This document shows positions 1,753 to 20,846 of a DNA stretch of 37,376 bases, in pieces. The stretch covers positions 1-37,376 of the forward strand of contig WRII01000027.1 in NCBI GenBank assembly GCA_009782825.1. Reading direction: 5' to 3'. Numbering within the stretch: the first letter of the stretch is position 1; each line of letters starts with the position of its first letter. Source of the stretch: Peptococcaceae bacterium (lineage in GTDB: Bacteria; Bacillota; Desulfitobacteriia; Desulfitobacteriales; Syntrophobotulaceae). Under the pieces are notes generated by a model. The model saw only the letters and a list, made by a program, of their open reading frames with translations. It ran no database searches and had not been told where the DNA came from. A program made the translations under genes and the position numbers.

Positions 1753-1799
1753 GCGGGCTTTGCCCGCAAGTGGTCAGTGATCAGTGGTTAGTGGTCAGT
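1753..1799 (-). ncRNA. Intercistronic repeat element, copy 1 (hairpin GCGGGC-ttt-GCCCGC plus GTGGTCA/GTGGTTA heptamer repeats), between nfeD and floT
   Basis: The sequence gcgggctttgcccgc-aagtggtcagtgatcagtggttagtggtcagt is read directly. It lies in the 128-nt gap between co-directional nfeD and floT. Orientation is given relative to minus-strand transcription. Confidence 0.6.
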
Positions 1800-1841
1800 A
1801 TTGGATTTTCTTGTGTATCTACCAAACTGCAGAAAATCGTC

Positions 1842-2480
1842 TCATGATTCCAAATCCTCCCTTTCCTCTTCGACCACCAGAACCCCTGCCCGAACATCCA
1901 TAACCCTGACGACAGTCCCGGAAGGCAAATTTTTTGTGGCGTCGGAGATCGCGTCCGCTTCAATAAAACGCTCTTGCACCACCAGATTCACTTTCCCTTG
2001 CTGGCCGGGAGCAATCGGGATATAGACCTGGCCAGTAACACCAAGGGCGTTTTTAAGAGATATGTTACCGCTGGACGTGAGTCTGCGCGCCGCCCAGACC
2101 AGTTTGGCCACACCATACATAGCGAGAAACCCCATGACACACCCTATGGGTACGGCAAGAAGCAGACTCCCAAAAGCATGATACAGGATCAGGGAAGCCC
2201 AGCCGAATACAGACAGTAAAGCTACAATACCCTGAAGTGAAAAAAGGCGCAATGCGGAGAAATCTCCAACGTGTGCTCCATCTCCGGGATGACCCATATC
2301 AGTCTCCATCTCCACATCCAGACCCAATCCGGAAACATCACTGGGATTGACATCAGCCTCCAAATGTCCCCAGCCTATTAATGTGAGCAGGGTCTGCAGG
2401 AGAAGAATGAGTGTCGCAGGGATGGCTATACAATACAGAATCTGAGATGCGAGATCCAGACTTTCCCACCATACGACCAT
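1842..2480 (-). CDS. NfeD-like membrane protein (YuaF-like, flotillin partner)
   Basis: 212-aa ORF with N-terminal hydrophobic segments and a C-terminal beta-rich OB-like region. The RBS aaggagg sits 8 nt upstream. It is immediately upstream of the flotillin gene on the same strand, which is the canonical nfeD-floT pairing. Confidence 0.7.
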   Translation of the reverse strand: MVVWWESLDLASQILYCIAIPATLILLLQTLLTLIGWGHLEADVNPSDVSGLGLDVEMETDMGHPGDGAHVGDFSALRLFSLQGIVALLSVFGWASLILYHAFGSLLLAVPIGCVMGFLAMYGVAKLVWAARRLTSSGNISLKNALGVTGQVYIPIAPGQQGKVNLVVQERFIEADAISDATKNLPSGTVVRVMDVRAGVLVVEEEREDLES

Positions 2481-2673
2481 ATAAATATCCTCCTTTCGTT
2501 GAGTGATTCTACTCTTGGGGTCTACTCTTGTTAATATTATTTACCTTCACATATTATTATAAAACTTCTGTCGATAATCGTCAAGATATGGCAAGATATA
2601 TTTTATCAAGACACATTGCGTTGAACCAAGTATGACAAATTTTTCGCAAACTTTTGTGGGTCTTTTACTTGAA

Positions 2674-2702
2674 ATTATAAGAACGGCATGTTAAGATGAC
2701 GT
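2674..2702 (+). promoter_or_regulatory. Candidate sigma-A promoter for the XRE/AlbA_2 cassette (-35 TTGAAA, 17-nt spacer, -10 TAAGAT)
   Basis: Hexamers were read from the sequence. The spacing is canonical. The promoter is upstream of the inverted-repeat pair and the XRE start. Confidence 0.3.
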
Positions 2703-2725
2703 TAATATGATTAACACCATTATAT

Positions 2726-2757
2726 AGGGGCTGTAACTAAATAAGTTTGACATTAGG
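2726..2757. repeat. Left copy of the ~30-bp repeat AGGGGCTGTAA..TAAGTTTGACATT. It also forms the left arm of a 21-nt inverted repeat with 2864-2884
   Basis: Direct comparison with 4841-4873 shows 11 identical nt followed by a shared taagttt(g)acatt. A third partial copy, TAGGGGCTGTAACTAAA, is at 11437-11453. Confidence 0.6.
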
Positions 2758-2857
2758 CCGCCGGATTTTTGTCGACAGGCAAGGCGAAAATCCGCAGGCA
2801 ACCTGGAAGGTTTTCAAGGATTTTCAACGAAACATGGCGGCAAAAAGACAAGGAATA

Positions 2858-3409
2858 ATGTCAAAGTTATTTAGTTACAGTCCCATAGCGGGGAAACTTA
2901 TGGACTATAAGGAATTGGGGAAAAGAATTAAAGAGCTGCGCCTGGCAAAAAAATTAACCCAAAGCGAGCTTGTCAGCGACTTTATCACCCGCAGTATGCT
3001 CAGCCAGATTGAAAGTGGAAGCGCAACACCTTCTATGCGGACCCTCGAATATATTGCCCAGAAGCTGCAGATACCCGTATCAGAGCTGGTTCCGGATCAG
3101 TCCGCGAGTCTTGACTGCTTGTTAACCGCTAAGCGGGCCTTGGCCGCGAAAGACTACGACCGGGTACTGCAATTCGCTGAAAAACTTCCTGTAGCCTTAG
3201 CGGATGAAGCCTACGCGTTAAAAGCGAAGGCCCATTTGGAGCTTGCGAAACTCCTCGAAGCACAACACCGGCACAAATCTGCCGCGGACCATGCCCATGC
3301 GGCAGCCTCCAACGCCAGTCAAGGGGTTTACGCATCCCGGCATCTGCGGGCTGATGCTTTGCTGCTGCTGGATGAAGCGGAACATTCCGGAGAGGTGGAA
3401 TCCACATGA
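2858..3409 (+). CDS. XRE-family helix-turn-helix transcriptional regulator (HTH_XRE N-terminal, helical C-terminal domain)
   Basis: The segment LGKRIKELRLAKKLTQSELVSDFITRSMLSQIESGSATPSMRTLEYIAQKLQIPVSEL is a textbook Cro/C1-type HTH. The start is uncertain: ATG at 2858 (RBS aaggaa) or ATG at 2900. The annotated ORF opens at a TTG at 2747, which is unlikely to be the start. The stop overlaps the next gene's start (ATGA). Confidence 0.75.
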   Translation: MSKLFSYSPIAGKLMDYKELGKRIKELRLAKKLTQSELVSDFITRSMLSQIESGSATPSMRTLEYIAQKLQIPVSELVPDQSASLDCLLTAKRALAAKDYDRVLQFAEKLPVALADEAYALKAKAHLELAKLLEAQHRHKSAADHAHAAASNASQGVYASRHLRADALLLLDEAEHSGEVEST

Positions 3410-4842
3410 CATCTGAACATATACAAAATCTGCTTGCCAATGGCGAAGGTTTAGCAGTCGAGTTCAAGGAGTGCGTGAACACACTGAATAATAGTGTCTG
3501 GGAGACAGTCTGCTCATTCTCTAACCGTTATGGAGGACATCTCATTCTCGGCGTGTCGGATGACGGAACGCCAATAGGCGTAAATCCTCAAGCTGCACTA
3601 CAAATGAAAAAGAATTTTGCCAGCATGTTAAACAATCCGCAGAAAACATCACCATCGCTGTTCTTAAGCCTCGAAGAAGTGGAATTGGCCGGCAAACTTC
3701 TGCTCCATACCTATATCCCAGTAAGCTCGCAGATACAGTCCTGCTCAGGCAGGATATACGACCGCAATGAAGATGGGGACTTTGACATCACAAACTCTGC
3801 CGACCTTGTGGCGCATTTGTCTATACGCAAGTTAAACCAGTTCACAGAACGGGAGGTATTTCCTTACGCAACTTTAGACGACCTGCGCCTTGATCTTATC
3901 CTTCAAGTAAAGAGAATGGCAGTTGGGCGTATTCCGGGTCACCCATGGAAAGACATGACCGATATGGAGCTGTTTAAAAGCGCCGGATTGTACGAAAGCG
4001 ACCTGCGGACAGGCAAGAAAGGTTTCAATCGCGCTGCCATACTGCTGTTTGGACGGGAAGAGGTCATCCAGCAAGTTGCACCTGGATATGTTACCGATTG
4101 CCTGTTGCGCGTTAGGAACAAAGACCGCTACGACGACAGGCTGCGTGTGGAAACCAATCTTATTGAGAGTTTTGATGTCCTTATGGAATTTATCTCTAAG
4201 CACACCAATGACCCATTCTTCTTGATAGACAATCTGAATGTAAGCGTGAGAAGTCACATAGCCAAGGAAATCGTTTCAAACATCCTTGTTCATCGAGAGT
4301 TCTCAGGTACATTTCCGGCACGCATCATCATAGAGCAAGACCGCCTTATCGCAGAAAACTGGAACCGCGCCCTTCGCCACGGACGTATAGACCCAGAAAA
4401 TTTTGAGCCATATCCGAAGAACCCTATACTTGCCCGATTTTTTGTTAATATCGGTTACGCGGACACGCTCGGCTCAGGCGTTCGCAACCTTGTGAAGTAT
4501 ACGAAGCTTTATTCAGGTGGAGAGCCGGAACTGATTGAAGGCGAAATATTCAGGACTATTATCCCGCTTGGCACTAATGTGCCAGTTTCTGTTGCCGATA
4601 AAGTTGCCGATAAGTTGCCGATAAAAGTTGCCGATAAATTGACTGTAGCTGAAATAACATTCTTGAAGTTGCTTGAACCCTATCTCCATGAACACGAATG
4701 GATAACAAACGCTGAAGCGAGGGAAATTACCGCAAAAGCGGAAGGAAGTGTAAAACGGTTTCTGCATAACCTTGTGGATAAAGGGGTGCTTGAAATCCGC
4801 GGCGGAAATAAGAACCGCCAGTACCGATTATGTAAGACTTAG
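3406..4842 (+). CDS. AlbA_2 (Schlafen-like 'divergent AAA') plus HATPase_c_4 domain protein with a C-terminal winged-HTH-like region. Putative nucleic-acid-binding regulator or defence-associated ATP-binding protein
   Basis: The N-terminal segment GEGLAVEFKECVN...FSNRYGGHLILGVSDDGTPIGV matches the AlbA_2/Schlafen core. The C-terminal segment NPILARFFVNIGYADTLGSGVRNL matches the HATPase_c_4 signature. An internal VADK(L/V) tandem peptide repeat is encoded by gttgccgataa repeats at ~4594-4650. The gene is translationally coupled to the XRE gene. Confidence 0.7.
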   Translation: MTSEHIQNLLANGEGLAVEFKECVNTLNNSVWETVCSFSNRYGGHLILGVSDDGTPIGVNPQAALQMKKNFASMLNNPQKTSPSLFLSLEEVELAGKLLLHTYIPVSSQIQSCSGRIYDRNEDGDFDITNSADLVAHLSIRKLNQFTEREVFPYATLDDLRLDLILQVKRMAVGRIPGHPWKDMTDMELFKSAGLYESDLRTGKKGFNRAAILLFGREEVIQQVAPGYVTDCLLRVRNKDRYDDRLRVETNLIESFDVLMEFISKHTNDPFFLIDNLNVSVRSHIAKEIVSNILVHREFSGTFPARIIIEQDRLIAENWNRALRHGRIDPENFEPYPKNPILARFFVNIGYADTLGSGVRNLVKYTKLYSGGEPELIEGEIFRTIIPLGTNVPVSVADKVADKLPIKVADKLTVAEITFLKLLEPYLHEHEWITNAEAREITAKAEGSVKRFLHNLVDKGVLEIRGGNKNRQYRLCKT

Positions 4843-4873
4843 GGGCTGTAAGTCCCTTAAGTTTACATTGCTG
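4841..4873. repeat. Right copy of the ~30-bp repeat (AGGGGCTGTAAGTCCCTTAAGTTTACATTG) bounding the XRE/AlbA_2 cassette
   Basis: Seen directly. It overlaps the -35 box of the ileS promoter. Confidence 0.6.
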
Positions 4874-4890
4874 CTGATTTCGCTATAATA
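4862..4890 (+). promoter_or_regulatory. ileS sigma-A promoter (-35 TTTACA, 17-nt spacer, -10 TATAAT)
   Basis: The sequence gtttacattgctgctgatttcgctataat is read directly. It sits 27 nt upstream of the ileS RBS aggagg. Confidence 0.5.
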
Positions 4891-4916
4891 AATAAAGATA
4901 GGAGGTTTTAAGTCAG

Positions 4917-7733
4917 ATGGACTATAAAGACACATTAAATCTTCCGCAAACAAATTTCCCCATGCGCGGAAATTTGCCGGAACGGGAACCGGCTATCCTG
5001 AAAAAATGGGAAGAAAAGGACATCTACCGTCGCGTGCAGACCGCGCGTCACGGGTGTCCAAAATTCGTTCTGCATGATGGACCTCCCTATGCCAACGGGG
5101 CGCTGCATATGGGGCATGCTTTGAATAAAATTTTGAAGGATTTAATTATTCGGTACAAGACCATGGCCGGGTTTGACGCCCCTTATGTCCCGGGCTGGGA
5201 CACCCATGGCCTGCCCATCGAGCAGCAGGTGATCAAAACCTTGGGTGTCAACCGCAAAGCTGTGGATGTGGGCGAGTTTCGTAATCGTTGCCGGGATTAT
5301 GCTCTGGAGTATGTGGATATCCAAAGAGAACAGTTTAAGATGCTTGGGGTTCTTGGAGATTGGGAAAACCCTTATCTGACACTTACCCCGGAATATGAGG
5401 CGGAACAGATCGGCGTCTTTGGCGCCATGGCGCAAAAAGGGTTCATCTACAAGGGGCTGAAACCTGTCTACTGGTGCCCGTCCTGCGAAACAGCTTTGGC
5501 CGAGGCGGAGATTGAGTATGCGGATCGGCGCTCCATGGCGCTCTTTGTCAGGTTTCCTGTCAAAGAGGGTAAGGGAATTCTGCCTGATCAGCCAGACAGA
5601 TCTTGCTCCCTGGTCATCTGGACAACAACGCCCTGGACGCTGCCGGCCAACCTGGCCGTTTGTCTGCATCCAGAATATGAGTACGCCCTTGTCCGCGGAA
5701 ACGACAGTAACGGAATTTTAATGGTCGTAGCCTTAGATCTTTTGGACTCCTTGAGACCCCAATGGGGGATGGAGCTTCCTGTTGAAAAAACCTTCCTGGG
5801 CCGGGATCTGGAAGGCATCGTCTGCCAACACCCCTTATGTGACCGTAATTCCGTTGTCATTATGGGAGATCATGTGACGCTGGAGCAGGGAACCGGATGT
5901 GTACACACAGCCCCGGGACACGGTGTTGATGACTTCGCTGTCGGCCGCGCCAACGGATTGGAAGTTCTGTGTCCGGTAGACTTTCAAGGAAAATTCACCA
6001 CAGAAGGGGGGCCCTACGCCGGGCTCAAAGTCCGGGAAGCCGATTCCCGTATTGTAGAAGACCTGCAGCAGTCGGGCCAGCTGGTTCTATCAGAAAACGT
6101 AACACACAGTTATCCCCATTGCTGGCGCTGCAAGAACCCCATTATTTTCCGCGCTACAGAGCAGTGGTTTGCTTCTATTGATGGATTCCGCCAGGAAGCC
6201 TTGACGGAAATTGATAAGGTTCGCTTTATTCCGCCTTGGGGTCGGGACAGAATCTATAACATGATTGCTGATCGGGGAGATTGGTGTATTTCGCGGCAGA
6301 GAACCTGGGGCGTCCCTATTCCGATCTTTTATTGTGACAGCTGCGAAGGCGAGATTATCACACCGGAGACCATTGCTCATGTGCAGCAGCTCTTCCGCCA
6401 GGAAGGGTCGTCAGCATGGTTTGCGCGGTCAGCCGAGGAGCTTTTGCCGCCCAACTTCGTCTGTTCCTGCGGGGGCACAACCTTTCATAAGGAAACGGAC
6501 ATTATGGATGTCTGGTTTGATTCCGGCAGCAGCCATATGGCCATATTGCGGCGCCGTCCGGAACTCACCTGGCCGGCGGATATGTATCTGGAAGGCTCTG
6601 ATCAGCATCGGGGATGGTTCAATTCCTCACTGTCCACCTCCGTGGCTATCACCGGACAAGCGCCGTATAGGGCCGTTTTGACCCACGGATTTCTTGTGGA
6701 TGAGAAGGGTATCAAGGTGTCCAAATCCTTAGGCAACTATGTTGACCTGCTCAAAGTCATCAAAGACATGGGAGCCGATATCATCCGCCTTTGGGTGGCC
6801 GCTTCCGATTATCAGAATGATGTGGCTGTTTCTCCCCGCATTATGAAACAGATGACAGAGGCCTACCGCAAAATCCGCAATACTTTACGCTTCCTGTTAG
6901 GCAATCTCTATGATTTTAACCCTCAGGAACACGCGATTCCTTATGACGCCCTTACTGAAATTGACACATGGATTTTGGCCAAGCTGGCGGCTCTGATTGA
7001 CCGCTGCCGTCAAGCCTACGATGACTATGAATTCCATACCGTATATCATAGCCTCCATAATTTTTGCACGATTGAGCTGAGTTCGATCTATATGGACATC
7101 ACCAAAGACCGCCTGTATGTTGAGGACAAAACCTCCCTCCTGCGCCGCAGCGCTCAAACAGTGATGAATGAAACAGTGGAGGCTCTCTTGCTTCTGCTGG
7201 CTCCTATTTTGGCGTTCACCACGGATGAGGCTTGGGAGTATTTGCCTTCCGTTCGCTGTCGAAACTCTGGAGACTCACAAGAATCTGAGAATCAAATCAT
7301 CCAATCCGCCTTTATGCCTGAAGTGGATCCTCACTGGCGCAATCCGGATATCCTGGAAACTTGGGAAGCCATCCTGATGCTGCGCGGGGAAATCACCAAG
7401 GCTCTGGAAAGCGCCCGGCAAAACAAACAGATCACCCATTCTTTGACGGCTCACGTGCAATTGTATCCGTCCGATGCCGATCAGGAAGCGTTTTTGCGGG
7501 GTATCCCTCGCCTTCAGGATGTGGTCATCGTCTCTCAGCTGACAATTTATCCGGCCAAAACCCCGGCGCCTTCTCAATCGTGTCCGGCTCAGGACTTCCC
7601 TGGCCTGGTCATCGCTATTGATATGGCGCAAGGGGAAAAATGTGAGCGCTGTTGGATGTACAGCGTGGATGTGGGCCGCGATACGGCGCACCCGGATCTG
7701 TGTCCCCGGTGCTGTAAGGTTTTATCATCATAA
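4917..7733 (+). CDS. ileS: Isoleucine--tRNA ligase
   Basis: 938 aa. Canonical N-terminus [21 protein letters not shown]. The HIGH-type motif [14 protein letters not shown] and the KMSKS motif KVSKSLGN are present. A C-terminal zinc-binding Cys cluster (CERCWMY...CPRCC) is present. Confidence 0.97.
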
Positions 7734-7787
7734 ATTGCTGTAAGGTTTTATCATCATATTGCGATAAGGTCTTATCATCATAAATTA
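7710..7787. repeat. Three tandem ~25-bp copies of (A)TTGCTGTAAGGTTTTATCATCATA spanning the ileS stop codon
   Basis: Read directly: gctgtaaggttttatcatcataa / ttgctgtaaggttttatcatcata / ttgcgataaggtcttatcatcataa. Confidence 0.8.
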
Positions 7788-7801
7788 AAGGAGTATTTTC
7801 T

Positions 7802-8407: not shown

Positions 8408-8419
8408 GAAGCGGGAAAC

Positions 8420-8482
8420 CAAAGCCAAGTGAGCAGAATAAAACCAAGTAAGTAGAATAAAGCCAAGTGAGTAGAATCACTC
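8420..8482. repeat. Intergenic tandem repeat, ~19-bp unit AGCCAAGTGAGTAGAATAA, x3-4, between pduL and lspA
   Basis: Read directly: agccaagtgagcagaataa / aaccaagtaagtagaataa / agccaagtgagtagaatca. Confidence 0.8.
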
Positions 8483-8491
8483 AAGTAGGAG

Positions 8492-9193
8492 TTGGGGGTT
8501 GGTATTTTGTATTATATTTGGATTATTGCAGCTGTCATTTTTCTTCTGGATCGTATCACCAAGCTCTTGGTCATCTCCAACATTAGTCTCGGTACCAGTT
8601 GGCCTGTCATTCACAATTTCTTTTATCTATCACATGTGCAGAATCAAGGCGCCGCCTTTGGCCTGTTTGCGGGCGGCACCCCTTATTTTATTGTTTTTAC
8701 TCTGGTGGTGGGGTGTGCCGCCGCCTTGCTCCTGCGCAAAATGATATCCCACTTGACGAAACCTATCGCCATCTGTCTCGGCTTGATCATTGGCGGAGCT
8801 CTGGGTAACTTTGTTGACCGGGTGTATTGGGGATATGTTGTGGATTTTCTGAATTTTAATTTATTTCCCTTCGTTTTCAACCTTGCGGACAGCGCTCTGG
8901 TGGTGGGCAGCTTCATGCTTGCGGGATTGATGTTTTTTGGTGAAAATACCAAAGCAAAAAAGTTGGAAATGAAAGGGACTGTGGAAGCCGTGGAAACCGT
9001 GCAAGCCCCGGAAACTGTGGAAGCCGTGGAAACCGTGTCTGTGGACGAAGAAGATGAGTCCGGGAAAACGAGTGCCCCTGCAGGAAGGGAAGATGCGCCC
9101 ACAGACACGGATGATGCAGCTGAAGAAGAAGATGTGTCTCAGGAAGAAGAAGATATCCCTGCGGAAATGGAGGCTAGTGCAGCACTCCATTAG
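8492..9193 (+). CDS. lspA: Lipoprotein signal peptidase II with an acidic, repeat-containing C-terminal extension
   Basis: Four transmembrane segments. Conserved motifs NLGTSWPVIHNFFYLSHVQNQGAAFG and VVDFLNF...FNLAD are present (the catalytic Asp lies in the FNLAD box). It sits in the conserved ileS-lspA-rluD position. The start is probably the TTG at 8492, next to the RBS aggag. The last ~90 aa are a Glu/Asp-rich tail with a VEAVETV x2 repeat. Confidence 0.9.
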   Translation: MGVGILYYIWIIAAVIFLLDRITKLLVISNISLGTSWPVIHNFFYLSHVQNQGAAFGLFAGGTPYFIVFTLVVGCAAALLLRKMISHLTKPIAICLGLIIGGALGNFVDRVYWGYVVDFLNFNLFPFVFNLADSALVVGSFMLAGLMFFGENTKAKKLEMKGTVEAVETVQAPETVEAVETVSVDEEDESGKTSAPAGREDAPTDTDDAAEEEDVSQEEEDIPAEMEASAALH

Positions 9194-9235
9194 TAACTTA
9201 TGGACACGAAGCGTCCATAAAAAACAAGAAAATCC

Positions 9236-9295
9236 CTGACCACTAACCACTGACCACTAACCACTAACCACTGACCACTTGCGGGCGTAGCCCGC
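9236..9295 (+). ncRNA. Intercistronic repeat element, copy 2 (six CTGACCAC/CTAACCAC heptamers, then TTGCGGGC-gta-GCCCGC hairpin), immediately upstream of the rluD RBS
   Basis: The sequence ctgaccactaaccactgaccactaaccactaaccactgaccacttgcgggcgtagcccgc is read directly. It is the reverse complement of copies 1 and 3, and so has the same orientation as local transcription. Confidence 0.6.
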
Positions 9296-9307
9296 GCTAG
9301 GAGATTA

Positions 9308-10321
9308 TTGCCTTTGGAAACTATAGATTTTTATGTCGGACACGCTCTTGTTCCCAAGCCCCATAACCCAGCTCTCCTGACAGAGCAGGAATCCCGCGGC
9401 TTTGCCGGACAGCGCCTGGACAAAGCCTTGGCCGCCCTGAGCGGACACAGCCGCGCCATGATCCAAAATCTCATCCGCGGCGGGCACGCCCGGGTCAACA
9501 ATCAGCCAGCGTCTCCCCATCACCTGCTGAAACAGGGTGATCATATTCATCTGGACATTCCCCAAGACCCTCTTCCCGGCGCCGATATGACACGACTAAA
9601 AATTTTGCCGGAAAACATTCCTCTGGACATTATACACGAAGATCAGTCTCTTCTCGTTGTCAATAAGCCTCAAGGCATGGTGGTTCATCCGGCTCCCGGC
9701 ACATACCGGGGAACTCTTGTCAATGCTCTTCTGTATCACTGCCCAAAGCTATCTGGCGTTGCCGGGACCGTGCGGCCCGGGATCGTCCATCGCCTTGATA
9801 AAGATACCTCAGGGCTTTTACTGGTAGCCAAAACCGATGACGCTCATCACGCTTTAGCCCGGCAAATCCAGGCTCACAGCCTTGAGCGGCTCTATAGGGC
9901 TATTCTTCATGGTGTATTTTACGACGCCGGCGCCACTATTGACGCCCCCATTGGCCGCGACCCTCATGACCGCCGCAAGAGAGTTGTCCAGATAAAAAGT
10001 TCCGGTACCCGCCAGGCCATGACTCACATTGAAGTCTTGCAGCGCTTCGAAAATTTTACAGAAATTAAAGCGACTCTGGAAACAGGGCGCCTTCACCAAA
10101 TTCGCGTCCATATGGCTTGGCTGGGACATCCGGTAGTTGGGGATCCGTTCTATGGTCCGAATCCCTCTTTTCGCGACCTGAAAGGCCAGCTTCTCCATGC
10201 GGAACGGATAGGGTTCGCGCACCCGGACACGGGAAAGACCATGGGCTTTGAGGCCCCGCCGCCGCTGCTCTATCAGGAAGTATTAAAGGAATTGCGTAAC
10301 ACGCACCACGCAACAGTGTAA
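9308..10321 (+). CDS. rluD: 23S rRNA pseudouridine synthase, RluD family
   Basis: S4-like N-terminal region followed by PseudoU_synth_2. The catalytic-Asp motif is HRLDKDTSGLLLVAKT. HQIRVHMA is also present. It sits in the conserved position after lspA. The start is probably the TTG at 9308, after the RBS aggag. Confidence 0.9.
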   Translation: MPLETIDFYVGHALVPKPHNPALLTEQESRGFAGQRLDKALAALSGHSRAMIQNLIRGGHARVNNQPASPHHLLKQGDHIHLDIPQDPLPGADMTRLKILPENIPLDIIHEDQSLLVVNKPQGMVVHPAPGTYRGTLVNALLYHCPKLSGVAGTVRPGIVHRLDKDTSGLLLVAKTDDAHHALARQIQAHSLERLYRAILHGVFYDAGATIDAPIGRDPHDRRKRVVQIKSSGTRQAMTHIEVLQRFENFTEIKATLETGRLHQIRVHMAWLGHPVVGDPFYGPNPSFRDLKGQLLHAERIGFAHPDTGKTMGFEAPPPLLYQEVLKELRNTHHATV

Positions 10322-10378
10322 GGCATATTTTTTCTGTAAATGCTCTATAAATGCTTATAAAATGCTTATAAATCCCAT

Positions 10379-10404
10379 TGAAACCATTTTTCAATCATGG
10401 TAAA
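10379..10404 (+). promoter_or_regulatory. Sigma-A-like promoter for the sortase-lipoprotein gene (-35 TTGAAA, 17 nt, -10 TAAAAT)
   Basis: Read directly. It is preceded by a 3x aaatgcttata tandem repeat and followed by the RBS aaaggggtgg. Confidence 0.45.
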
Positions 10405-10433
10405 ATACTGTCGAAAGGGGTGGATATTTTATT

Positions 10434-11429: not shown

Positions 11430-11436
11430 AAACAGT

Positions 11437-11453
11437 TAGGGGCTGTAACTAAA
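11437..11453. repeat. Third (partial) copy of the TAGGGGCTGTAACTAAA repeat, overlapping the 3' end of the minus-strand sortase paralog
   Basis: 17/17 identity with 2725-2741 (the left copy at 2726-2757 minus its first-position T). Confidence 0.5.
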
Positions 11454-12063: not shown

Positions 12064-12158
12064 CCTCCTCTTCTCTTTGATTCTGGTGCAAGCCTCTTTA
12101 AATTCTACTATAAGTCACATCTTGTGACAATATGGGTAATTTGATTTATTATTATTAA

Positions 12159-12257
12159 TCAACTATGATGATATCAACTTGATGATATCAACTATGATGA
12201 TATCAACTTGATGATATCAACTATGATGATATCAACTATGCTCAATAATATCAACTG
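12159..12257. repeat. Tandem array, 6 copies of a 14/15-bp unit TGATGATATCAACT(A), in the divergent region upstream of pyrR
   Basis: Read directly: caactatgatgatatcaacttgatgatatcaactatgatgatatcaacttgatgatatcaactatgatgatatcaactatgctcaataatatcaactg. Confidence 0.85.
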
Positions 12258-12275
12258 TGTAGAAGCGAGAAAATA

Positions 12276-12830: not shown

Positions 12831-12843
12831 GAAAGGGACGGAT

Positions 12844-13830: not shown

Positions 13831-13833
13831 CTG

Positions 13834-15183
13834 ATGTGGTTGATTAAAAATGTTCATGTGGTCGATCCGGCTCAGGATCTGGATGCCATATGCGATGTAG
13901 AATTTGATGAACGTATCCGGAACATTATAAAGCATAATGCGAATACGCAAAACACACTCCCTGTTGATGCTGACTCACCAGATGAACATACAGTGTCAGG
14001 CCGCAAAACATCAGAAGCCGCCCCCTCCGGCAACACTGTTCAAGTCATCGATGGCCGCGGCAAGTATCTGTTTCCCGGCTTTGTGGATGTTCACGCCCAT
14101 CTGCGGGAACCGGGACGGGAGGATAAGGAGGATCTCGCCAGCGGCGCCCAGGCAGCGGCTCGCGGCGGGTTCACCACTGTCCTCTGCATGGCCAACACCC
14201 AGCCTGTCATCGATAATCGGGGTCTTGTGGAATTTGTGATCAATCAGGGATCTCAGGCAGAGGGAGCACGGGTATGGCCTGTTGCCGCTGTGACCAAAGG
14301 CCTGAAAGGGGAAGAGCTGGTCAATATGGTCGAATTACATAACGCGGGAGCCGTGGCTTTTTCCGATGACGGCCGGGGCATTCAACGCGGCCAGACCATG
14401 CTGTTGGCCTTGCAGTACGCCCAGCTGACGGGGCGCCCCATTATTTCTCACTGCGAAGAGGACTCCTTAGCCGCCAACGGATCCATGCGGCGGGGTCCTC
14501 AGAGCGCCCGCTTGGGATTGACCGGCATTCCCGCCGCTGCCGAAAGTGTTATGGCAGCACGGGATATTCTTCTGGCCGAAGAAACCGCGGGCAGACTCCA
14601 TCTGGCTCACATGTCCGCTTCCGCCACTGTGACCCTGTTGGGATGGGCTAAAAAGCAAGGTATAGATGTTACCGGCGAAGTCAACCCTCATCATCTGATT
14701 TTTTGCGATGAAGATATCGGCCTGACCGACACCGCCCTTAAAGTGAATCCTCCCTTGCCTTCAGCCGCGGATCGGGAGATTTTGATAGAAGCGCTGGCCA
14801 ACGGAACTATCGACATGCTGGCCACGGATCATGCGCCTCACACCTGGGAAGAGAAGGCTCAGCCTTTTGCGGAAGCGCCCTTCGGCATCAATGCTTTTGA
14901 AACTGCCCTATCCGCCGTTTGGATGTCCTTGGTAGAACCTGGCAAGTTGTCAGTCAGCCGGCTTGTCCGCGCTTGGTCTCTGAACCCGGCCCGGCGTTTC
15001 AGCCTTGCCGGGGGAAGCCTCAGTCCCGGAACCCCGGCCGATGTTGTGCTTTTTGATCCCAGTCACACCAGAGTGATTGGAGAGGGAACGTGGATGTCAA
15101 AATCTACCAATACCCCGTATTGGGGAAAGCCTATGCATGGATTCGCCATCGCCACCTGGGTGGGCGGTATCAAACACTGTTAA
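13834..15183 (+). CDS. pyrC: Dihydroorotase (class I)
   Basis: Metal-binding VDVHAHLREPG is present, and the HAPH-type motif TDHAPH. It is 449 aa, with a ~35-aa insertion near the N-terminus (NANTQNTLPVDADSPDEHTVSGRKTSEAAPSGNT). Confidence 0.9.
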   Translation: MWLIKNVHVVDPAQDLDAICDVEFDERIRNIIKHNANTQNTLPVDADSPDEHTVSGRKTSEAAPSGNTVQVIDGRGKYLFPGFVDVHAHLREPGREDKEDLASGAQAAARGGFTTVLCMANTQPVIDNRGLVEFVINQGSQAEGARVWPVAAVTKGLKGEELVNMVELHNAGAVAFSDDGRGIQRGQTMLLALQYAQLTGRPIISHCEEDSLAANGSMRRGPQSARLGLTGIPAAAESVMAARDILLAEETAGRLHLAHMSASATVTLLGWAKKQGIDVTGEVNPHHLIFCDEDIGLTDTALKVNPPLPSAADREILIEALANGTIDMLATDHAPHTWEEKAQPFAEAPFGINAFETALSAVWMSLVEPGKLSVSRLVRAWSLNPARRFSLAGGSLSPGTPADVVLFDPSHTRVIGEGTWMSKSTNTPYWGKPMHGFAIATWVGGIKHC

Positions 15184-15211
15184 AACGGTTATACAGGGGA
15201 GGCTGCGACAT

Positions 15212-16144
15212 ATGCTAAGTCAGGAGAAGGTTGTCACCAATCATGCTATGGGACCGGCTCATAACGGCCAAGGCCTTTACAAACTTGTTCTGCACGGTCA
15301 AATTGCCGAACACGCTTACCCGGGACAGTTCGTCGCCATTCGACCCTCGGACACGAACGATCCGCTGCTGCGCCGGCCCTTGAGTATAGCGGGTATTGAT
15401 AAAAAAACCGGGGAGCTGACCCTCTGCTATCGCCTCAAAGGTCCAGGCACCACACTTTTGTCTCGCATCCCGCCGGGAGCTTATGTAGATGTTCTCGGTC
15501 CCCTGGGCCAAGGCTTCTCTCTGGGGAGGCAAGGGTTTAGCAAAACCCTGCCGGACTTTTCGGAAGATCGGCCAGGATTCCAAGGTCATCCTCTGCCTGC
15601 CCGCGTCATTCTTGTCGCTGGGGGAATCGGGATTTTTTCATTATATGCGCTTTTGGAACATCTGCTGCGCAATCCTGCGTTTTGGAAGATCCTTGTCACC
15701 GTCATCTGGGGAGGATTGGATAAGGGTTTTCTTGAACATGCCATGGCAGATGTGCTGTATCAGCTGCCGAAAGAAAATCTGATTCTGTGCACCATGGATG
15801 GGAGCCTCGGATATAAGGGATTGGTGACCGAACCTTTGGAGCACCTGCTCAATACCCGCAAAACTGCGGGCACACTTGAGAGCCCAAACAGATTTGAGAG
15901 TGGGGGAACCTTGGTAGCGGCCTGCGGCCCTAAGGTGATGCTGCATGCTGTGGCTGAACTCTGCGAGAGATTCGGTGTGCCTTCCGAAGTCTGTTTGGAA
16001 GAGCATATGGCCTGCGGTTTGGGCGCCTGCCTCGGGTGCAGCTGCCAAATCAAGGATGAAACCGGCGTTGTGCGGCGTGGGCGCGTCTGTGTGGAAGGTC
16101 CTGTTTTCTCCGGGAAGGAGGTCGTTTGGCATGAGCAGATTTGA
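15212..16144 (+). CDS. pyrK: Dihydroorotate dehydrogenase electron-transfer subunit (FAD/NAD-binding, 2Fe-2S)
   Basis: ATG at 15212 after the RBS aggggagg. A C-terminal Cys cluster CGLGACLGCSC is present, and an RPxS FAD motif (RRPLSIAG). The annotated ORF start at 15077 lies inside pyrC. Confidence 0.85.
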   Translation: MLSQEKVVTNHAMGPAHNGQGLYKLVLHGQIAEHAYPGQFVAIRPSDTNDPLLRRPLSIAGIDKKTGELTLCYRLKGPGTTLLSRIPPGAYVDVLGPLGQGFSLGRQGFSKTLPDFSEDRPGFQGHPLPARVILVAGGIGIFSLYALLEHLLRNPAFWKILVTVIWGGLDKGFLEHAMADVLYQLPKENLILCTMDGSLGYKGLVTEPLEHLLNTRKTAGTLESPNRFESGGTLVAACGPKVMLHAVAELCERFGVPSEVCLEEHMACGLGACLGCSCQIKDETGVVRRGRVCVEGPVFSGKEVVWHEQI

Positions 16145-17057
16145 CAGATCCCTGACCATAAAGGGGCTCCATCTGAAAAACCCCCTTATTGCCTGCTCCG
16201 GTACTTATGGTTTTGGCGACATCTATACTGAGTATGTCCCCGCCTCTGCTTGGGGGGGAATTGCCATGAAAGGCATTACGCCCCAGCCCCGTTTGGGAAA
16301 TCCCGCACCGCGTTTGCGCGAAACCCCGGCCGGTCTTTTGAATGCTGTAGGTTTGGAGAATCCTGGTCTCAAGGAATTTCGGCACAGCTGCCTGCCTGGG
16401 ATGGCGGATATAGGAACAGCGGTCATTGTTAACATTTCCGGCTTTTCTGTGAACGACTTCAAGTTCATGGCTTCCCGGCTTGATCAGGAGCCGAACGTGG
16501 ATGCGTTGGAAGTCAATATTTCCTGCCCCAATATTAAACATGGCGGTATGCAGTTTGGCAGCGACCCCGACAGCGCCGCCGAAGTCGTGCGGGCTGTACG
16601 CGAAAACACGTCTCTTCCGCTTATTGTCAAGCTGTCACCCAATGTCACGGATATTGCGGCCATCGCCCGGGCTGTGGTTCAAGGCGGCGCTGACGCTGTC
16701 TCCCTGATCAATACTTTGCTGGGTATGAGCATTGATATTGAAACTCAGAAACCTTTTTTAGGCAATACTACAGGGGGACTGTCAGGCCCTGCTGTGCGTC
16801 CTGTAGCTGTGCGCATGGTGTATGAGACCTATAAGGCTGTTGATGTGCCCATTATAGGTATGGGGGGGATCACCTGCTGGCAGGATGCTGTGGAATTCAT
16901 GTTGGCCGGCGCCTCAGCGGTGGGGATCGGAACCGCGAATTTCACCAATCCTTTGGCCCCGGTAGAGGTTTTGGAAGGGATTGAGGCTTATGCGCGGGAG
17001 CATGGGTATGGCTCTTTGCGGGAGTTGGTGGGGCGGGCACATAGGTCAGGAGATTGA
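16131..17057 (+). CDS. pyrD: Dihydroorotate dehydrogenase catalytic subunit (class 1B)
   Basis: The start MSRFDRSLTIKGLHLKNPLIACSGTYGFG has the RBS ggaaggagg. It overlaps the pyrK end by 14 nt. A TIM-barrel FMN site is present (VKLSPN, GGI). Confidence 0.9.
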   Translation: MSRFDRSLTIKGLHLKNPLIACSGTYGFGDIYTEYVPASAWGGIAMKGITPQPRLGNPAPRLRETPAGLLNAVGLENPGLKEFRHSCLPGMADIGTAVIVNISGFSVNDFKFMASRLDQEPNVDALEVNISCPNIKHGGMQFGSDPDSAAEVVRAVRENTSLPLIVKLSPNVTDIAAIARAVVQGGADAVSLINTLLGMSIDIETQKPFLGNTTGGLSGPAVRPVAVRMVYETYKAVDVPIIGMGGITCWQDAVEFMLAGASAVGIGTANFTNPLAPVEVLEGIEAYAREHGYGSLRELVGRAHRSGD

Positions 17058-17130
17058 TAGATCATGACACATGACTTGCCCGGCAGACAAGATTGGTTAC
17101 ATCTGTTATTTGCGAAAGATGGTGATTACA

Positions 17131-17823
17131 ATGAACCTCCAAGAGAGGCTTAGCCCGATCTCTCAAGTTATCGTCGCTCTCGACGTAGACAACATTGCCC
17201 GCGCCCATGAACTTGCCCGTTTACTGCAAGGAACAGGCTGCTGGTTAAAAATCGGCATGGAACTTTACGCTCTGAGCGGTATCAGCCTGATTGATGAGTT
17301 CAAAAGTCTTGGTTTTCATATTTTCCTTGACCTCAAGCTCCACGATATTCCCACCACAGTGGAGCGAACGCTGCGTGTCCTCGCGGCTTCGGGCGCCGAT
17401 ATGATCACTGTTCATTGTCTGGGAGGGTATGATATGATGGCCCGGGCCGCTGATGTCTGTCACCAAGCGGACACACTTCTCATGGGTGTGACTGTCCTTA
17501 CCAGCATGGATGAAAAGCATCTGGCCGATATTGGCGTAACGCAGGACATAGACAACCAAGTCGTTCATCTTGCTCAGTTGGCTCACCGGGCCGGACTTGA
17601 CGGAGTTGTGGCCTCAGCTCACGAAGTGCCAAATCTGCGCAAGCAGCTAACCGAATTCCTTTTGGTGACGCCAGGTATCCGTCCCGCCGGCAGTGAAACC
17701 AACGACCAAGCGCGAGTCTTAACCCCACAAGCCGCTTTAGATGCCGGCAGTTCCTACCTTGTTGTCGGGAGACCCATTACGCAGTCACCTGATCCGAGAC
17801 AGGCTCTGTTAAGTTTATTTTAA
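17131..17823 (+). CDS. pyrF: Orotidine 5'-phosphate decarboxylase
   Basis: MNLQERL...VIVALDV...DLKLHDIPTTV...LLVTPGIRP matches the OMPdecase signatures (DxKxxDI, VTPGI). ATG at 17131. Its stop codon overlaps the stop codon of the convergent histidine kinase gene. Confidence 0.9.
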   Translation: MNLQERLSPISQVIVALDVDNIARAHELARLLQGTGCWLKIGMELYALSGISLIDEFKSLGFHIFLDLKLHDIPTTVERTLRVLAASGADMITVHCLGGYDMMARAADVCHQADTLLMGVTVLTSMDEKHLADIGVTQDIDNQVVHLAQLAHRAGLDGVVASAHEVPNLRKQLTEFLLVTPGIRPAGSETNDQARVLTPQAALDAGSSYLVVGRPITQSPDPRQALLSLF

Positions 17824-20789
17824 GTAAAATAATCGACATCCGCACCATCAATCAATGACACAGCCTCATCATACGCGCCGATTAAGACGTTTTGCAAGAT
17901 ATCCTCCACAGTATCTCCCACACGAGGCGTTTGAGTGAATTTTTGCAATTCGCCAACAGCTTTTTTTATCCTGACAGAATCCAAAACATCCAGTGCCACT
18001 TTTAACTCGGAAAGTTCCGCGTGCAGCACGTCTATATCTGGATTCCCTGTCTGATCAAGACCCATATCTTTGGTATGAGTCCTCGCCTGTGTGATCCCTA
18101 TGTTGATCGCATCGAGAAGGGTTTCTAACCCCTTGAAGAACGCATCGCTCCGGGAATGAACAAAATCCACCATTCCTTTTTCAGCTGCGTTCTCCAGCTC
18201 TTGAGCTGCCTCGGCAATCCCTTCGGCTCCGATGTTCCCTGCGGCACTCTTGATTCCATGAGCATATATTCTGTACAACGACAGATTTTCTGCCCTGAGA
18301 CATGCCTTCATTTCCTTGATTGTCTCAAGAGTATCTTTATAAAATGTAGTCAGGATCTTCAAGTAGCTTTGTATCGATCCGCCTGCTATCGCCACGCCCA
18401 CCTTGGTGTTCAGCCCGTCAATATTAATGTTCAGCCCATCAATATTAATATTCAGCCTGTCAACAGGGCAGCTTATGCCGGCGCGGATGTCATCTGGCGT
18501 CCGCTTTATCTGCTTTTCCGGCGGAAGCCATCTTGCCAGCATCATGTCCAGCTTAACAGTATCAATGGGTTTAGACAGAAAATCATTGAATCCATTCTCC
18601 AGAAACATCTTTTTTGTGCCCACAACCGCGTTGGCTGTCAGCGCGATAATCGGCAGGGATGTATAATACGGGTCTTTGCCACCCAGAGCTCTGATTTTTG
18701 CCGTAGCTTCCATGCCGTTCATTGCGGGCATCATATGATCCATGAAGATCAAATCATAACGCTCTCTTTTGAGTATTTCAATAGCCACCTTGCCGCTTTT
18801 GCACACATCCACCTGCATGCCATAAGGCTTGAGCAGCCCTTCGGCAACCTTCAAGTTCGTTTCAATATCGTCAACAATAAGGATTCTCGCCTGAGGCGCG
18901 GTAAAATTCACGACAGGTTCATGAGGGATGACCCTTTCTTCTGAGGCTGATGTCCTCACCGCACCTGAATTGCCTATGCCAAGGCTGGTGTCCTCCGGTC
19001 TGCCGATTAATCCTCCGGCGTGCTGGTATCCTCCGGCTGTGGTATGGGACACTTTGTTTAAGAAGTTGGCTACAGGCAAAGAATAAATGGGGGTGGTCAG
19101 GAGGCTGATATTATGTCCCGCAATGGCCTCCCCAAATTCCGCAATCAGCAAAAACTTGACCCCGGACTTATATCCTTCAGCGCTCTCAAGGTTCGCATAT
19201 TTTTCTTTGACCCTTTCATAGAGAACAGAGGCCAGGAAAACAAAAGAATACTTGCGGCTCATAATTTCGTCATAGAACTCAGCATCCGTGGAAATTGCCT
19301 TATAGGGAACGCCCAGACTTTCCATGGTCTGCACTATGGAGTGTCTGTAGAGTTCACGACGTTCATAAATCAAGACATTCTTTTCCTCCGGGTTTTCCAC
19401 GACCGCCATCTTTTGGTTCGATCTGACCTTCTGTGGCAGCGTCACAGTAAAAGTACTGCCTTCTCCATAGATAGAGTGAACCTCAATCGTTCCCCCCATA
19501 GCGTCAACTAAATTTCGTGTTATGGCCAGCCCCAACCCTGTCCCTTCGATGCCTTTATTGTCTACAAGATCCCCCCGAGTAAATTCATCGAACAGCTTCC
19601 CGATTTCTTCCTCTCTGATGCCTTTACCGCTGTCTTCGACAGTTATGATAAGAATAACTGTATTATCATGATCATCATGATAATCATCATGATCATCATC
19701 ATCATAACCACCATCATCATAACCACCATCATCACTGGGATTTGCCATCTCCTTGAGAATGGATAGGGAAACATATCCTCTTTCCGTATATTTTACGGCA
19801 TTGCTTAACAAATTCATCATGATTTGACGGATTCTTATAGCGTCCCCAAAAAGATCATTAGGAATGTCATTATCGACATTAACCACGAAGCGCAGCCGCG
19901 ACTCCAGGACCCTGGTTTTTATAATATTGACCACATCATTAACCAAAGAGGAGAACAAATAGTCTGCCGGAGCAATTTCCAGGTTGCCTGATTGAATTCT
20001 GGAAAAATCTAAAATATCATTGATGATCGACAATAAGGTAGACCCCGTGTGCTTAATGGTCAGAACATTTTCCTGGACATCCAGCGGAATACTTTTCCTC
20101 AGGGTCAGCTCCGACATGCCGATGATCGCATTCAGAGGGGTGCGCATCTCATGGCTCATTTTCGCTAAAAAAGCGGATTTCGCCTGATCCGCCCCTTTGT
20201 AATAGTGGGCTGCCGCCGCTTGATCCCTCGCCTCAATAATATTGGTCAGATCTCTGAAAATCACAAGGAGTCCGTCATTTTTGTCGCGTTCATATGTAAA
20301 CGGCGCAGCGCTTATCGCATAATGGCGCACCGTTCCCGTATCGCCAAGATCAAGGTTATCTTCAGATTCTTGGATTGCGCCCATGGCAAAAGCTTTCTGG
20401 AAAAGATCCTCCATATGGTCAAGCCACTCTTCGTCAGCAAAAACGGAAAAAATTTGCCTGAAGGGCTTATGGTGCAGAAACTCGGGGCTGGGTATGTTCA
20501 AAAGCGTTAAAAACGATTGGGTGGACAGAAGAAAATGTGCCGCGCTGTCAAGGAGGATAATCATATCCGGCGAATATTCCATGATAACTTGAAGGTGCTT
20601 TTCCTGTTTGGATTTTTCAGCAGTGACGACGGCACTGAGGGTTTCTTGGGCCATCATTATATTTTTATACGTCTCTACCAAATGCTCTGACGCTGCGAGT
20701 TGCCGGGTCAGTCTTCTATTTTCAAGCTCAAGCCGGGTGATTTCTTTAAGCAGGGTTTCCTTTTCCGGCCCCTCAAATTGTTCTGCCAT
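17820..20789 (-). CDS. Hybrid sensor histidine kinase: coiled-coil/PAS, HisKA, HATPase_c, degenerate receiver, receiver, Hpt
   Basis: H-box SHEMRTPLNAIIGM. N-box NLLSNAVKYT. G-box DSGKGI...GTGLGL. REC ILIVDDIETN...DLIFMDHMMPAMNG...IIALTANA. Hpt HGIKSAAGNIGAEG. The start is probably the ATG at 20789 (MAEQFEG; RBS aggag 8 nt upstream). A TTG-extended ORF to 20822 would run into the repeat element. There is an acidic DDGGYDDGGYDDDDHDDYHDDHD insertion between the N-box and G1-box. There is also a NINIDGL x2 repeat. Confidence 0.85.
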   Translation of the reverse strand: MAEQFEGPEKETLLKEITRLELENRRLTRQLAASEHLVETYKNIMMAQETLSAVVTAEKSKQEKHLQVIMEYSPDMIILLDSAAHFLLSTQSFLTLLNIPSPEFLHHKPFRQIFSVFADEEWLDHMEDLFQKAFAMGAIQESEDNLDLGDTGTVRHYAISAAPFTYERDKNDGLLVIFRDLTNIIEARDQAAAAHYYKGADQAKSAFLAKMSHEMRTPLNAIIGMSELTLRKSIPLDVQENVLTIKHTGSTLLSIINDILDFSRIQSGNLEIAPADYLFSSLVNDVVNIIKTRVLESRLRFVVNVDNDIPNDLFGDAIRIRQIMMNLLSNAVKYTERGYVSLSILKEMANPSDDGGYDDGGYDDDDHDDYHDDHDNTVILIITVEDSGKGIREEEIGKLFDEFTRGDLVDNKGIEGTGLGLAITRNLVDAMGGTIEVHSIYGEGSTFTVTLPQKVRSNQKMAVVENPEEKNVLIYERRELYRHSIVQTMESLGVPYKAISTDAEFYDEIMSRKYSFVFLASVLYERVKEKYANLESAEGYKSGVKFLLIAEFGEAIAGHNISLLTTPIYSLPVANFLNKVSHTTAGGYQHAGGLIGRPEDTSLGIGNSGAVRTSASEERVIPHEPVVNFTAPQARILIVDDIETNLKVAEGLLKPYGMQVDVCKSGKVAIEILKRERYDLIFMDHMMPAMNGMEATAKIRALGGKDPYYTSLPIIALTANAVVGTKKMFLENGFNDFLSKPIDTVKLDMMLARWLPPEKQIKRTPDDIRAGISCPVDRLNINIDGLNINIDGLNTKVGVAIAGGSIQSYLKILTTFYKDTLETIKEMKACLRAENLSLYRIYAHGIKSAAGNIGAEGIAEAAQELENAAEKGMVDFVHSRSDAFFKGLETLLDAINIGITQARTHTKDMGLDQTGNPDIDVLHAELSELKVALDVLDSVRIKKAVGELQKFTQTPRVGDTVEDILQNVLIGAYDEAVSLIDGADVDYFT

Positions 20790-20805
20790 AGATACATCTC
20801 CTAAA

Positions 20806-20846
20806 GCGGGCTGCACCCGCAAGTGGTCAGCGATCAGTGGTTAGGG
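20806..20846 (-). ncRNA. Intercistronic repeat element, copy 3 (GCGGGC-tgca-CCCGC hairpin plus heptamers), immediately upstream of the histidine kinase RBS
   Basis: The sequence gcgggctgcacccgc-aagtggtcagcgatcagtggttaggg is read directly. It lies between the radical SAM gene and the histidine kinase, both on the minus strand. Confidence 0.6.

Follow-up and report, generated by a model that had tools for sequence, protein, structure and literature searches.

The DNA analyzed here is a 37,376-nt contig (WRII01000027.1, assembly GCA_009782825.1; hereafter the window) from an uncultured bacterium assigned to the Peptococcaceae, and it carries three copies, which we call W1, W2, and W3, of a short element in which a run of heptamers is followed by a G/C-rich hairpin. 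A search outward from the genes at its two ends yielded no further sequence, the window being the entire contig. A first-pass annotation of the window had proposed a dedicated regulatory RNA role for this element. Our analysis indicates that W1-W3 are probably insertions of a small, noncoding, nonautonomous interspersed repeat of the selfish type, comparable to transposable elements of the miniature inverted-repeat kind (MITEs) and to REP and BOX repeats. The proposed RNA role fits poorly with what we found, as the element occurs in both orientations and relatives have the corresponding gene junctions without it. The repeat belongs to an uncultured "Peptococcaceae" lineage (a termite-gut-type bacterium) and to a related metagenome-assembled genome (MAG), and it has multiplied in their intergenic spaces.

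Distribution, orientation, and empty sites of the repeat

All three copies were present in the window where the annotation had placed them. A 29-nt junction pattern (CTRACCACTRAYCRCTGACCACTTGCGGG) had three exact matches in the window, at 1763-1791 (−), 9257-9285 (+), and 20816-20844 (−), and no match in 100 dinucleotide-preserving shuffles; the hairpin pattern GCGGGY-N3-5-RCCCGC, with 0.03 matches expected by chance, was found in the window only at the three copies. The core that they share reads (CTRAYCA)n-CTT-GCGGGY-NNN-RCCCGC, in which the array has a period of 7 nt (units CTGACCA, CTAACCA, CTGATCA, or CTGATCG) and comprises four units in W1, six in W2, and three in W3. Each hairpin occupies 15 nt, with a 6-bp stem and a 3-nt loop. 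The G/C stem that had been described was present at all three copies, but the 4-nt loop reported for the third was not; its loop is also 3 nt and its closing pair is G·U. The copies themselves were likewise as described, but their true boundaries are wider: 1747-1821 for W1, 9191-9301 for W2, and 20800-20856 for W3.

The family extends beyond the window. When a genome collection was scanned with the 15-mer CTRACCACTTGCGGG, nearly all of the 112 stretches returned were chance matches, the only real one being L053, a true family locus on contig WRJI01000026 of the MAG "Peptococcaceae bacterium Nt197P3bin79" (GCA_009778595.1). When metagenomes were scanned with TRACCACTTGCGGGYNNNGCCCGC, 16 loci were obtained from JGI24704J35079, JGI24705J35276, and Ga0082212, one of which, L125, is a chance match. 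Using a profile built from nine full-length copies, we searched the window and the related metagenome and MAG contigs (about 110 kb) and found about 30 copies on several contigs, from several samples and at least two organisms; the same profile found no copy in the 111 chance-hit genome loci. Family copies are 85-100% similar and their flanks are unrelated. One contig, Ga0082212_10001812, holds five copies in 14 kb, and contigs often break within the element (L003 at 6337-6381, L130 at 1760-1839, and L138 at 1-29), as would be expected of a multicopy repeat, evidently one numerous enough to fragment short-read assemblies. The presence of W1 and W2 and their heptamer numbers were constant across the two to three assemblies carrying them, with W1 identical in sequence in L137 and W2 identical in L001 and L002. 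Rfam gave no match in the window at the gathering threshold, and in five loci the elements themselves had no hit at E≤1. Nor was any match obtained from two viral-contig scans, from a BLAST comparison of the consensus with collections of phages and plasmids, or from a literature search for the literal element sequences. Judged against these collections, the element appears to constitute a new repeat family.

Alignment of the copies defined a full-length unit of about 100-113 nt with the order (T)TAG|TAACTTACA, hairpin 1, leader, (CTRAYCA)n, CTT, hairpin 2, and RTTAG tail. The consensus of hairpin 1, which is preceded by TTACA, is GACGC-GAA-GCGTC and includes the mini-hairpin motif GCGAAGC; the leader is AATAAAAAACAAGAAAATCC(AATA); and hairpin 2 is GCGGGC-RNA-GCCCGC, where the three loop letters stand for a purine, any base, and A. 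The unit is thus bounded by TAACTTACAG-hairpin 1 at one end and by hairpin 2-RTTAG at the other. The number of heptamers ranges from 1 to 6 across the family, and a second sub-family has the heptamers CTGAATC, CTGAATA, CTGGATA, and CTGACTC together with other stems. Internal-deletion forms and tandem direct copies are also present: all five close pairs (in L118, L119, L120, L121, and L122) are direct repeats, with one of the L120 copies adjoining, by its 5′ end, the 3′ tail of the copy before it.

Neighboring genes could be assigned for 21 copies, of which 13 were in the sense orientation (W1-W3 among them), six were antisense, and two lay between convergent genes (SpoIID/SmpB and PGA_cap/FKBP). 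The genes that the antisense copies face are Pfam supported (QueH/amylase-like, cyclophilin/LOR-like, Band_7, Ser/Thr kinase, NfeD/histidine kinase, and F420-ligase-like), the LOR match falling under the Pfam cut-off. The claim that the element is always oriented with transcription was thus a small-sample impression, which the six antisense and two convergent copies do not bear out. Random placement, as the annotation had framed it, would include both antisense and intragenic copies; the former were found, and the latter were not seen among the family copies examined, all of which are intergenic. Within the window, the described placement was borne out, as each of W1-W3 lies between genes on the same strand and just ahead of the next Shine-Dalgarno sequence. 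Nine of ten sense copies have their 3′ end 6-33 nt before the next start, and in those copies the Shine-Dalgarno sequence is in the flank and not in the element. The flanking genes have no functional theme in common.

Relatives provide the corresponding junctions in their empty state. lspA and rluD, which are separated by a 114-nt spacer in the window, overlap by 8 nt (ATGATTAG) in the loci of four relatives, and in a fifth (L132) the gene calls overlap by more than 8 nt. One of these four, the copy-free locus L135, belongs to the same MAG as L053, which bears other copies. RluD of the empty-site relatives is 59-64% identical to that of the window. If 9194-9300 (TAAC...GCTAG) were removed from the window, the remaining sequence would be ...CAT-TAG|GAGATTA-TTG, a compact junction with the lspA stop within the rluD ribosome-binding site. 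Similarly, the spacer upstream of floT is 19 nt (TAAaaccgacaGGAGGcgtactATG) in L141 versus 128 nt in the window; FloT of L141 is 86% identical, and the upstream gene is 37% identical to the 212-aa gene of the window. The annotation had argued that a REP-type repeat would not show such positional regularity, an argument not supported by these orthologous junctions, which lack the element and have 8-nt overlaps or a 19-nt spacer instead. The position just upstream of a Shine-Dalgarno sequence would be the trace that an insertion of 70-110 nt leaves when it is tolerated in a tight operon junction. Two other comparisons were discarded. The L053 copy at 3251-3338 is not an orthologue of W2, since the likeness of its flank is the element's own 5′ module and the true locus is L135; and the nfeD/Band_7 pair of L053 is not an empty site for W1, its proteins not being orthologous, so L141 was taken instead.

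Modules, hairpins, and tolerance within operons

W2 (9191-9301, +) is a full-length copy (profile positions 1-101, E=6e-28) and occupies the lspA-rluD spacer, which consists of W2 plus 6 nt. The stop codon of lspA (TAG, 9191-9193) doubles as the first triplet of W2. Alignment and folding place hairpin 1 (ATGGACAC-GAA-GCGTCCAT) at 9200-9218; it is followed by an A-rich leader, AAAAAACAAGAAAATCC (9219-9235), which is kept across full-length copies, by the array of six CTGACCA or CTAACCA units (9236-9277), and by CTT and hairpin 2, GCGGGC-GTA-GCCCGC, located by pattern search (9278-9295, hairpin 9281-9295). The last bases, GCTAG, together with a flanking GAG form the AGGAG Shine-Dalgarno sequence (9299-9303) of rluD, whose start is the TTG at 9308 or 9314. 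W1 (1747-1821, −; profile positions 32-101, E=2e-20) is a short form without hairpin 1 between the 212-aa gene (1842-2480) and floT (262-1713). It consists of TAGAT and the leader ACACAAGAAAATCCAATA (1821-1799), four heptamers (1798-1771), CTT (1770-1768), hairpin 2 (GCGGGC-AAA-GCCCGC, 1767-1753), and the tail ATCAGT (1752-1747). W3 (20800-20856, −; profile positions 54-101, E=1e-10), a short form with an internal deletion and again without hairpin 1, is flanked by the genes for the radical SAM protein (20929-21801) and the hybrid histidine kinase (17820-20789). Its 5′ part, CTTACAAGTCCC (20856-20845), is followed by the array CTAACCA CTGATCG CTGACCA (20844-20824), CTT (20823-20821), hairpin 2 with its one G·U pair (GCGGGT-GCA-GCCCGC, 20820-20806), and the tail TTTAG (20805-20801), whose AG (20802-20801) opens the AGGAG Shine-Dalgarno sequence (20802-20798). 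The distance from hairpin 2 to the Shine-Dalgarno sequence is 3 nt in W2 and W3 and about 25 nt in W1. The junctions TACA|CAAG of W1 and TTACA|AG of W3 suggest that hairpin 1 was lost by deletion between the ACA repeats on either side of it. Pfam confirmed the flanking genes as FloT/Band_7, LspA, RluD (by a precomputed Pfam assignment to the called gene), radical SAM, and hybrid histidine kinase; the 212-aa gene that the annotation labeled "nfeD" has no Pfam match.

How such an insertion can be accommodated inside an operon is suggested by its ends. We found no terminator-like or promoter-like site within the three window copies, and an intrinsic terminator was rejected as an identity for the element, whose sense-strand tails are RTTAG and whose antisense-strand tails are AAGTGG. 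The 5′ end of the element reads TAG-TAA, with lspA stopping at that TAG. Seen from the opposite strand, the 3′ tail is CTAA or CTGA, and six of the eight genes converging on the 3′ end stop within the last 5 nt. Because of these TAG-TAA and TTAG/CTAA ends, a gene entering the element from either side is closed at once. On the downstream side, the terminal TAG and a flanking GAG give AGGAG in both W2 and W3, 4-10 nt ahead of the start codon. The order of stop codon, element, and Shine-Dalgarno sequence would then be the footprint of purifying selection on tolerated insertions and not evidence of a dedicated regulatory role.

The annotation had also proposed that a conserved stem with a variable loop reflects selection on structure. 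The stem is indeed conserved: hairpin 2 is paired in all 24 distinct copies, and two pairs have compensatory, two-sided changes (GCGGTC/GACCGC and GTGGGC/GCCCAC), which supports a stem kept either by selection or by palindrome maintenance. As for the loop, its sequence differs between copies, but it does not vary freely, since it begins with a purine in 24/24 copies and ends with A in 23/24. The CTT before hairpin 2 is invariant (24/24) and the A preceding it nearly so. The two one-sided changes in hairpin 2 both give U·G on the sense strand, where the other strand would have A·C mismatches; wobbles thus fall on the sense strand 2 to 0 in hairpin 2, and by inspection hairpin 1 has about four G·U events against one A·C. 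GC-GNA-GC is present in 15 of the 24 copies of hairpin 2, as GCGAAGC is in hairpin 1, and only the sense strand carries this DNA mini-hairpin motif (GCGNAGC). Mini-hairpins of this type are very stable as DNA and much less so as RNA, and they are known from single-strand priming sites and from phage N4 hairpin promoters (PMC13037366, PMC3201870). When folded, the element forms two local hairpins and leaves the heptamer array open, although in the main sub-family pairing is possible between the array core (CTGAC, CTAAC, or CTGAT) and the GTTAG or ATCAG tail. Fold z-scores were −2.5 to −3.4 for W1, W2, and the consensus, and the W3 region folded no better than shuffled sequence (z=+0.5). The relevant strand is apparently the sense strand, and the loop type leans toward single-stranded DNA rather than RNA. 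One family copy differs in this module: at L117 2750-2861 (−), hairpin 2 is replaced by GCGGT-ACTGATGCAATCGGAG-ACCGC, in which a compensatory change preserves the foot of the stem and the 16-nt loop looks as though something had been inserted into it.

We considered whether these features could instead define a cis-acting RNA module of polycistronic mRNA, with the ACCAC-rich array serving as a protein-binding or standby site and the hairpin as a processing site, a block to 3′-exonucleases, or a coupling device. Such a module would account for the sense orientation of 3/3 window copies and 13/21 family copies, for the 6-33 nt between the 3′ end and the next start in nine of ten sense copies, for compensatory and G·U changes in the stem that fit the sense strand only, for a C-rich, G-poor array, and for the favorable folds of W1, W2, and the consensus. 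It does not account for the six copies that are antisense to both, or to the sole, adjacent real genes, for the two between convergent genes, for orthologous junctions that work in relatives without the element, or for flanking genes without a shared functional theme. Heptamers that differ by sub-family (CTGACCA versus CTGAATA or CTGGATA) argue against one protein-binding code; the GNA and AAA triloops are a DNA mini-hairpin motif and not the GNRA or UNCG tetraloops common in functional RNAs; and neither the Rfam search nor the fold of W3 favors this explanation. We consider an RNA module unlikely.

Possible route of spread and comparison with known repeats

If W1-W3 are insertions of a mobile repeat, the element itself offers some indication of how it may be copied. 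We propose that a trans-acting enzyme would recognize the two small hairpins on one DNA strand and would join the left end beside (T)TAG by single-strand chemistry like that of IS200/IS605 or RAYT enzymes (PMC5027513, PMC6006769, PMC2817692). Heptamer number would drift through replication slippage; that it ranges from 1 to 6 between loci and is constant between assemblies of one locus fits occasional slippage. When co-transcribed, hairpin 2 may incidentally influence mRNA decay or translational coupling. A single-strand route of this kind is suggested by the lack of terminal inverted repeats, a hairpin near each end, the sense-strand features, and the direct tandem copies, and we put it forward only tentatively, as a possibility. 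At the left end, TAG precedes TAAC in 10/12 full-length copies and TTAG does so in 7/12, and IS608 always inserts 3′ of TTAC (PMC5027513). At the right end, the tail variant ATCAG is found at three unrelated loci (W1, L121 3517-3617, and L117 2750-2861), which favors a tail inherited with the element over a target duplication. W1-W3 lack a common orientation relative to replication, which counts against the single-strand route.

A more specific version, which we regard as doubtful, is that the repeat represents a new strand-specific single-stranded-DNA mobile element of Firmicutes. This element would have GCGNAGC mini-hairpin ends, would join (T)TAG and end in TTAG, and would thereby regenerate a split stop codon on either strand or a split TAGGAG ribosome-binding site, while the heptamer core (CTAAC/CTGAT), complementary to the tail (GTTAG/ATCAG), would take part in end recognition or copy-number control. 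If this were true, such self-healing ends would allow the element to colonize overlapping, translationally coupled gene pairs.

Several points weigh against reading W1-W3 as mobile-repeat insertions. The loci of the census were picked because they hold a copy, so estimates of density are biased. Sense copies outnumber antisense ones 13:6; this excess falls short of significance (two-sided binomial about 0.17) but might stem from function or selection. Orientation in the window follows gene direction in 3/3 copies (−, +, −) and not a single replication direction, which misfits a strict lagging-strand rule. The lack of variation between assemblies gives no apparent sign of recent activity, and the empty-site relatives seem too distant to define an insertion point at the nucleotide level. 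The proposed mobility rests on distribution and empty sites. No transposase or other partner gene was found, although no search aimed at one was possible, and no cognate TnpA is known.

Comparison with known families placed the repeat near several of them. Like REP, REPIN, and BIME sequences, it consists of short G+C-rich palindromes in many copies, strictly extragenic, clustered, and often in operons and co-transcribed; the REP of Pseudomonas putida contains ...GCGGGCgTGCCCGC..., which resembles hairpin 2 (PMC2817692). Unlike REP and REPIN, it has no GT(A/G)G head (PMC2817692) and has (A)CTT 5′ of the stem instead, its neighboring copies are direct (5/5) and not inverted doublets, its unit is a composite of two different hairpins and a heptamer array, and its host is of the Firmicute type; on these features, we would not class it as a REP or REPIN. 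With nonautonomous derivatives of IS200/IS605, it shares the absence of terminal inverted repeats, a subterminal hairpin at each end (in full-length copies), strand-specific features, and apparently a left end that adjoins a conserved short sequence. It differs from them in that its two hairpins are not alike, in its internal tandem heptamer array, which is foreign to IS200/IS605, and in the mixed orientation of the window copies relative to replication.

In architecture, the repeat resembles Streptococcus BOX elements (boxA-boxBn-boxC), which also have fixed 5′ and 3′ modules around variable tandem internal modules, are often co-transcribed, and have an uncertain mobilizing enzyme (PMC3049150). 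The internal module is 7 nt here versus about 45 nt in BOX, however, and each end module folds into a local hairpin of its own instead of the two joining in one stem. The comparison with boxA, boxB, and boxC covers architecture only, and no sequence relationship is apparent. Correia, ERIC, and Chunjie-type MITEs are likewise small repeats that lie between operon genes and leave the operon unbroken, and such MITEs can change where genes end, contribute signals, and influence how mRNA is processed (PMC3049150). Terminal inverted repeats and target duplications (of TA or another sequence) characterize these families, and neither is demonstrable here: the 5′ end of the element (TAACTTACAGACGC) and the reverse complement of its 3′ end (CTAACGCGGGC...) share at most TAAC. 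Lacking terminal inverted repeats, the element would not be a classical MITE. Chunjie itself is reportedly a MITE of Geobacter uraniireducens, described by Chen et al. in Genetics in 2008. The cyanobacterial repeat STRR2 is said, from Mazel et al. in 1990, to be TTGGTCA (complement TGACCAA), so that its intergenic tandem heptamers are nearly identical to the TGACCAC of our element; STRR arrays are free standing and from another phylum, whereas the array here is internal to a unit with fixed ends, and the likeness is probably coincidental.

We also asked whether the sequence might be a DNA signal recruited by the host, as has been suggested for certain REP/BIME functions, its array being an iterated site for a nucleoid-associated, gyrase-like, or partition-like protein, or its mini-hairpins acting as single-stranded-DNA priming or hairpin-promoter signals. 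The high local density on Ga0082212_10001812, the tolerance of both orientations, the direct repetition of neighboring copies (5/5), and the presence of GCGNAGC motifs of a kind known where single-strand initiation occurs and in the hairpin promoters of phage N4 (PMC13037366) would all suit such a signal. But no candidate binding protein is known, the element is patchy among relatives (the related MAG lacks it at its lspA-rluD locus), neither the sequence nor the number of heptamers is conserved between sub-families, and internal-deletion forms persist, as they do for decaying selfish DNA. This explanation seems quite improbable.

More improbable still is a classical, IS5-like MITE that moves by cut-and-paste, stems from a DDE insertion sequence, and duplicates a 4-bp target of the YTAR type; the terminal TTAG sequences would then represent this target. 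IS5-group elements target YTAR, and TTAG, CTAG, or TTAA is present at both boundaries of many copies, with an identical tetranucleotide on the two sides in 5/12 full-length copies. That tetranucleotide is always the consensus TTAG, however, and in no copy is a nonconsensus variant shared by both sides. The right end of the element also reads TTAG, so that a duplicated target and an inherited end look alike, and a target-site duplication was not supported. The absence of terminal inverted repeats and the recurrence of the ATCAG tail at three unrelated loci speak against it as well. Finally, integron attC sites have RYYYAAC...GTTRRRY cores in one long imperfect palindrome and lie at the 3′ end of cassettes that share one orientation beside intI; here only the TAAC...GTTA ends can pair, there is no end-to-end palindrome, and the flanks are housekeeping genes in mixed orientation, so attC was rejected.

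Other features of the window and implications of the repeat

The window also contains a three-gene type XIII retron defence locus at 23181-29386 (+), which encodes a WGR-type protein of 953 aa (PADLOC WGR_XIII, 5e-16), a SWIM-type protein of 592 aa (SWIM_XIII, 4e-174), and a reverse transcriptase of 522 aa (RT_XIII, 5e-151; Pfam RVT_1). The reverse transcriptase was set aside as a possible mobilizing enzyme, as nothing ties it to the element. An 18-nt ×4 tandem repeat lies inside its gene (28887-28962). In the gene cluster around lspA, further intergenic spacers are inflated by local tandem repeats: at 7710-7786 (26 nt ×3, after ileS), 8421-8477 (19 nt ×3, before lspA), and 12158-12240 (14/15 nt ×5.7, upstream of pyrR). 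In the relative L134, the matching spacers measure just 21 nt (ileS-PTAC) and 12 nt (PTAC-lspA). Expansion of spacers seems to be a general tendency of the window's genome. LspA (8492-9193) has a long, acidic, repetitive C-terminal tail, partly encoded by a 9/18-nt tandem repeat (GTGGAAACC ×6.3, 8981-9037); the length of the tail varies among relatives, whose LspA proteins are 180-233 aa overall.

Lachnospiraceae and Oscillospiraceae MAGs encode proteins that share 80-87% identity with FloT of the window, whereas for RluD the best relative reaches only 64%. L001 (1-7900), a second assembly of the same strain background, has different genes upstream of an HTH/AlbA_2 gene pair compared with window positions 262-2480; from these comparisons, the floT block looks horizontally acquired and strain variable. 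The pair itself (2747-4842, +), just upstream of ileS, consists of two genes that overlap by 4 nt, one for a 220-aa HTH protein and one for a 478-aa protein of the AlbA_2/Schlafen-like type. It has weak matches to defence models (HTH_VI/RmrA/CapH-like and Aga PNTD-like) and may be a small defence or toxin-regulator pair. Firmicutes often carry a T-box leader upstream of ileS; no T-box or other Rfam family was found in the window at the gathering threshold, including upstream of ileS (4843-4916).

If W1-W3 are indeed insertions of a mobile repeat, they introduce a new family of small interspersed repeats from a poorly sampled, uncultured Firmicute lineage. In practical terms, such a repeat breaks short-read assemblies, inflates operon spacers, and can pass for a regulatory motif. 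At lspA/rluD, it would have split an overlapping, translationally coupled gene pair without visible damage to either gene: the element has stop triplets at both ends and no terminator, and a ribosome-binding site is rebuilt at the 3′ junction. Its GNA mini-hairpins, confined to one strand, would make it a candidate substrate for HUH-type enzymes outside the Proteobacteria, where the REP/RAYT system is best known.

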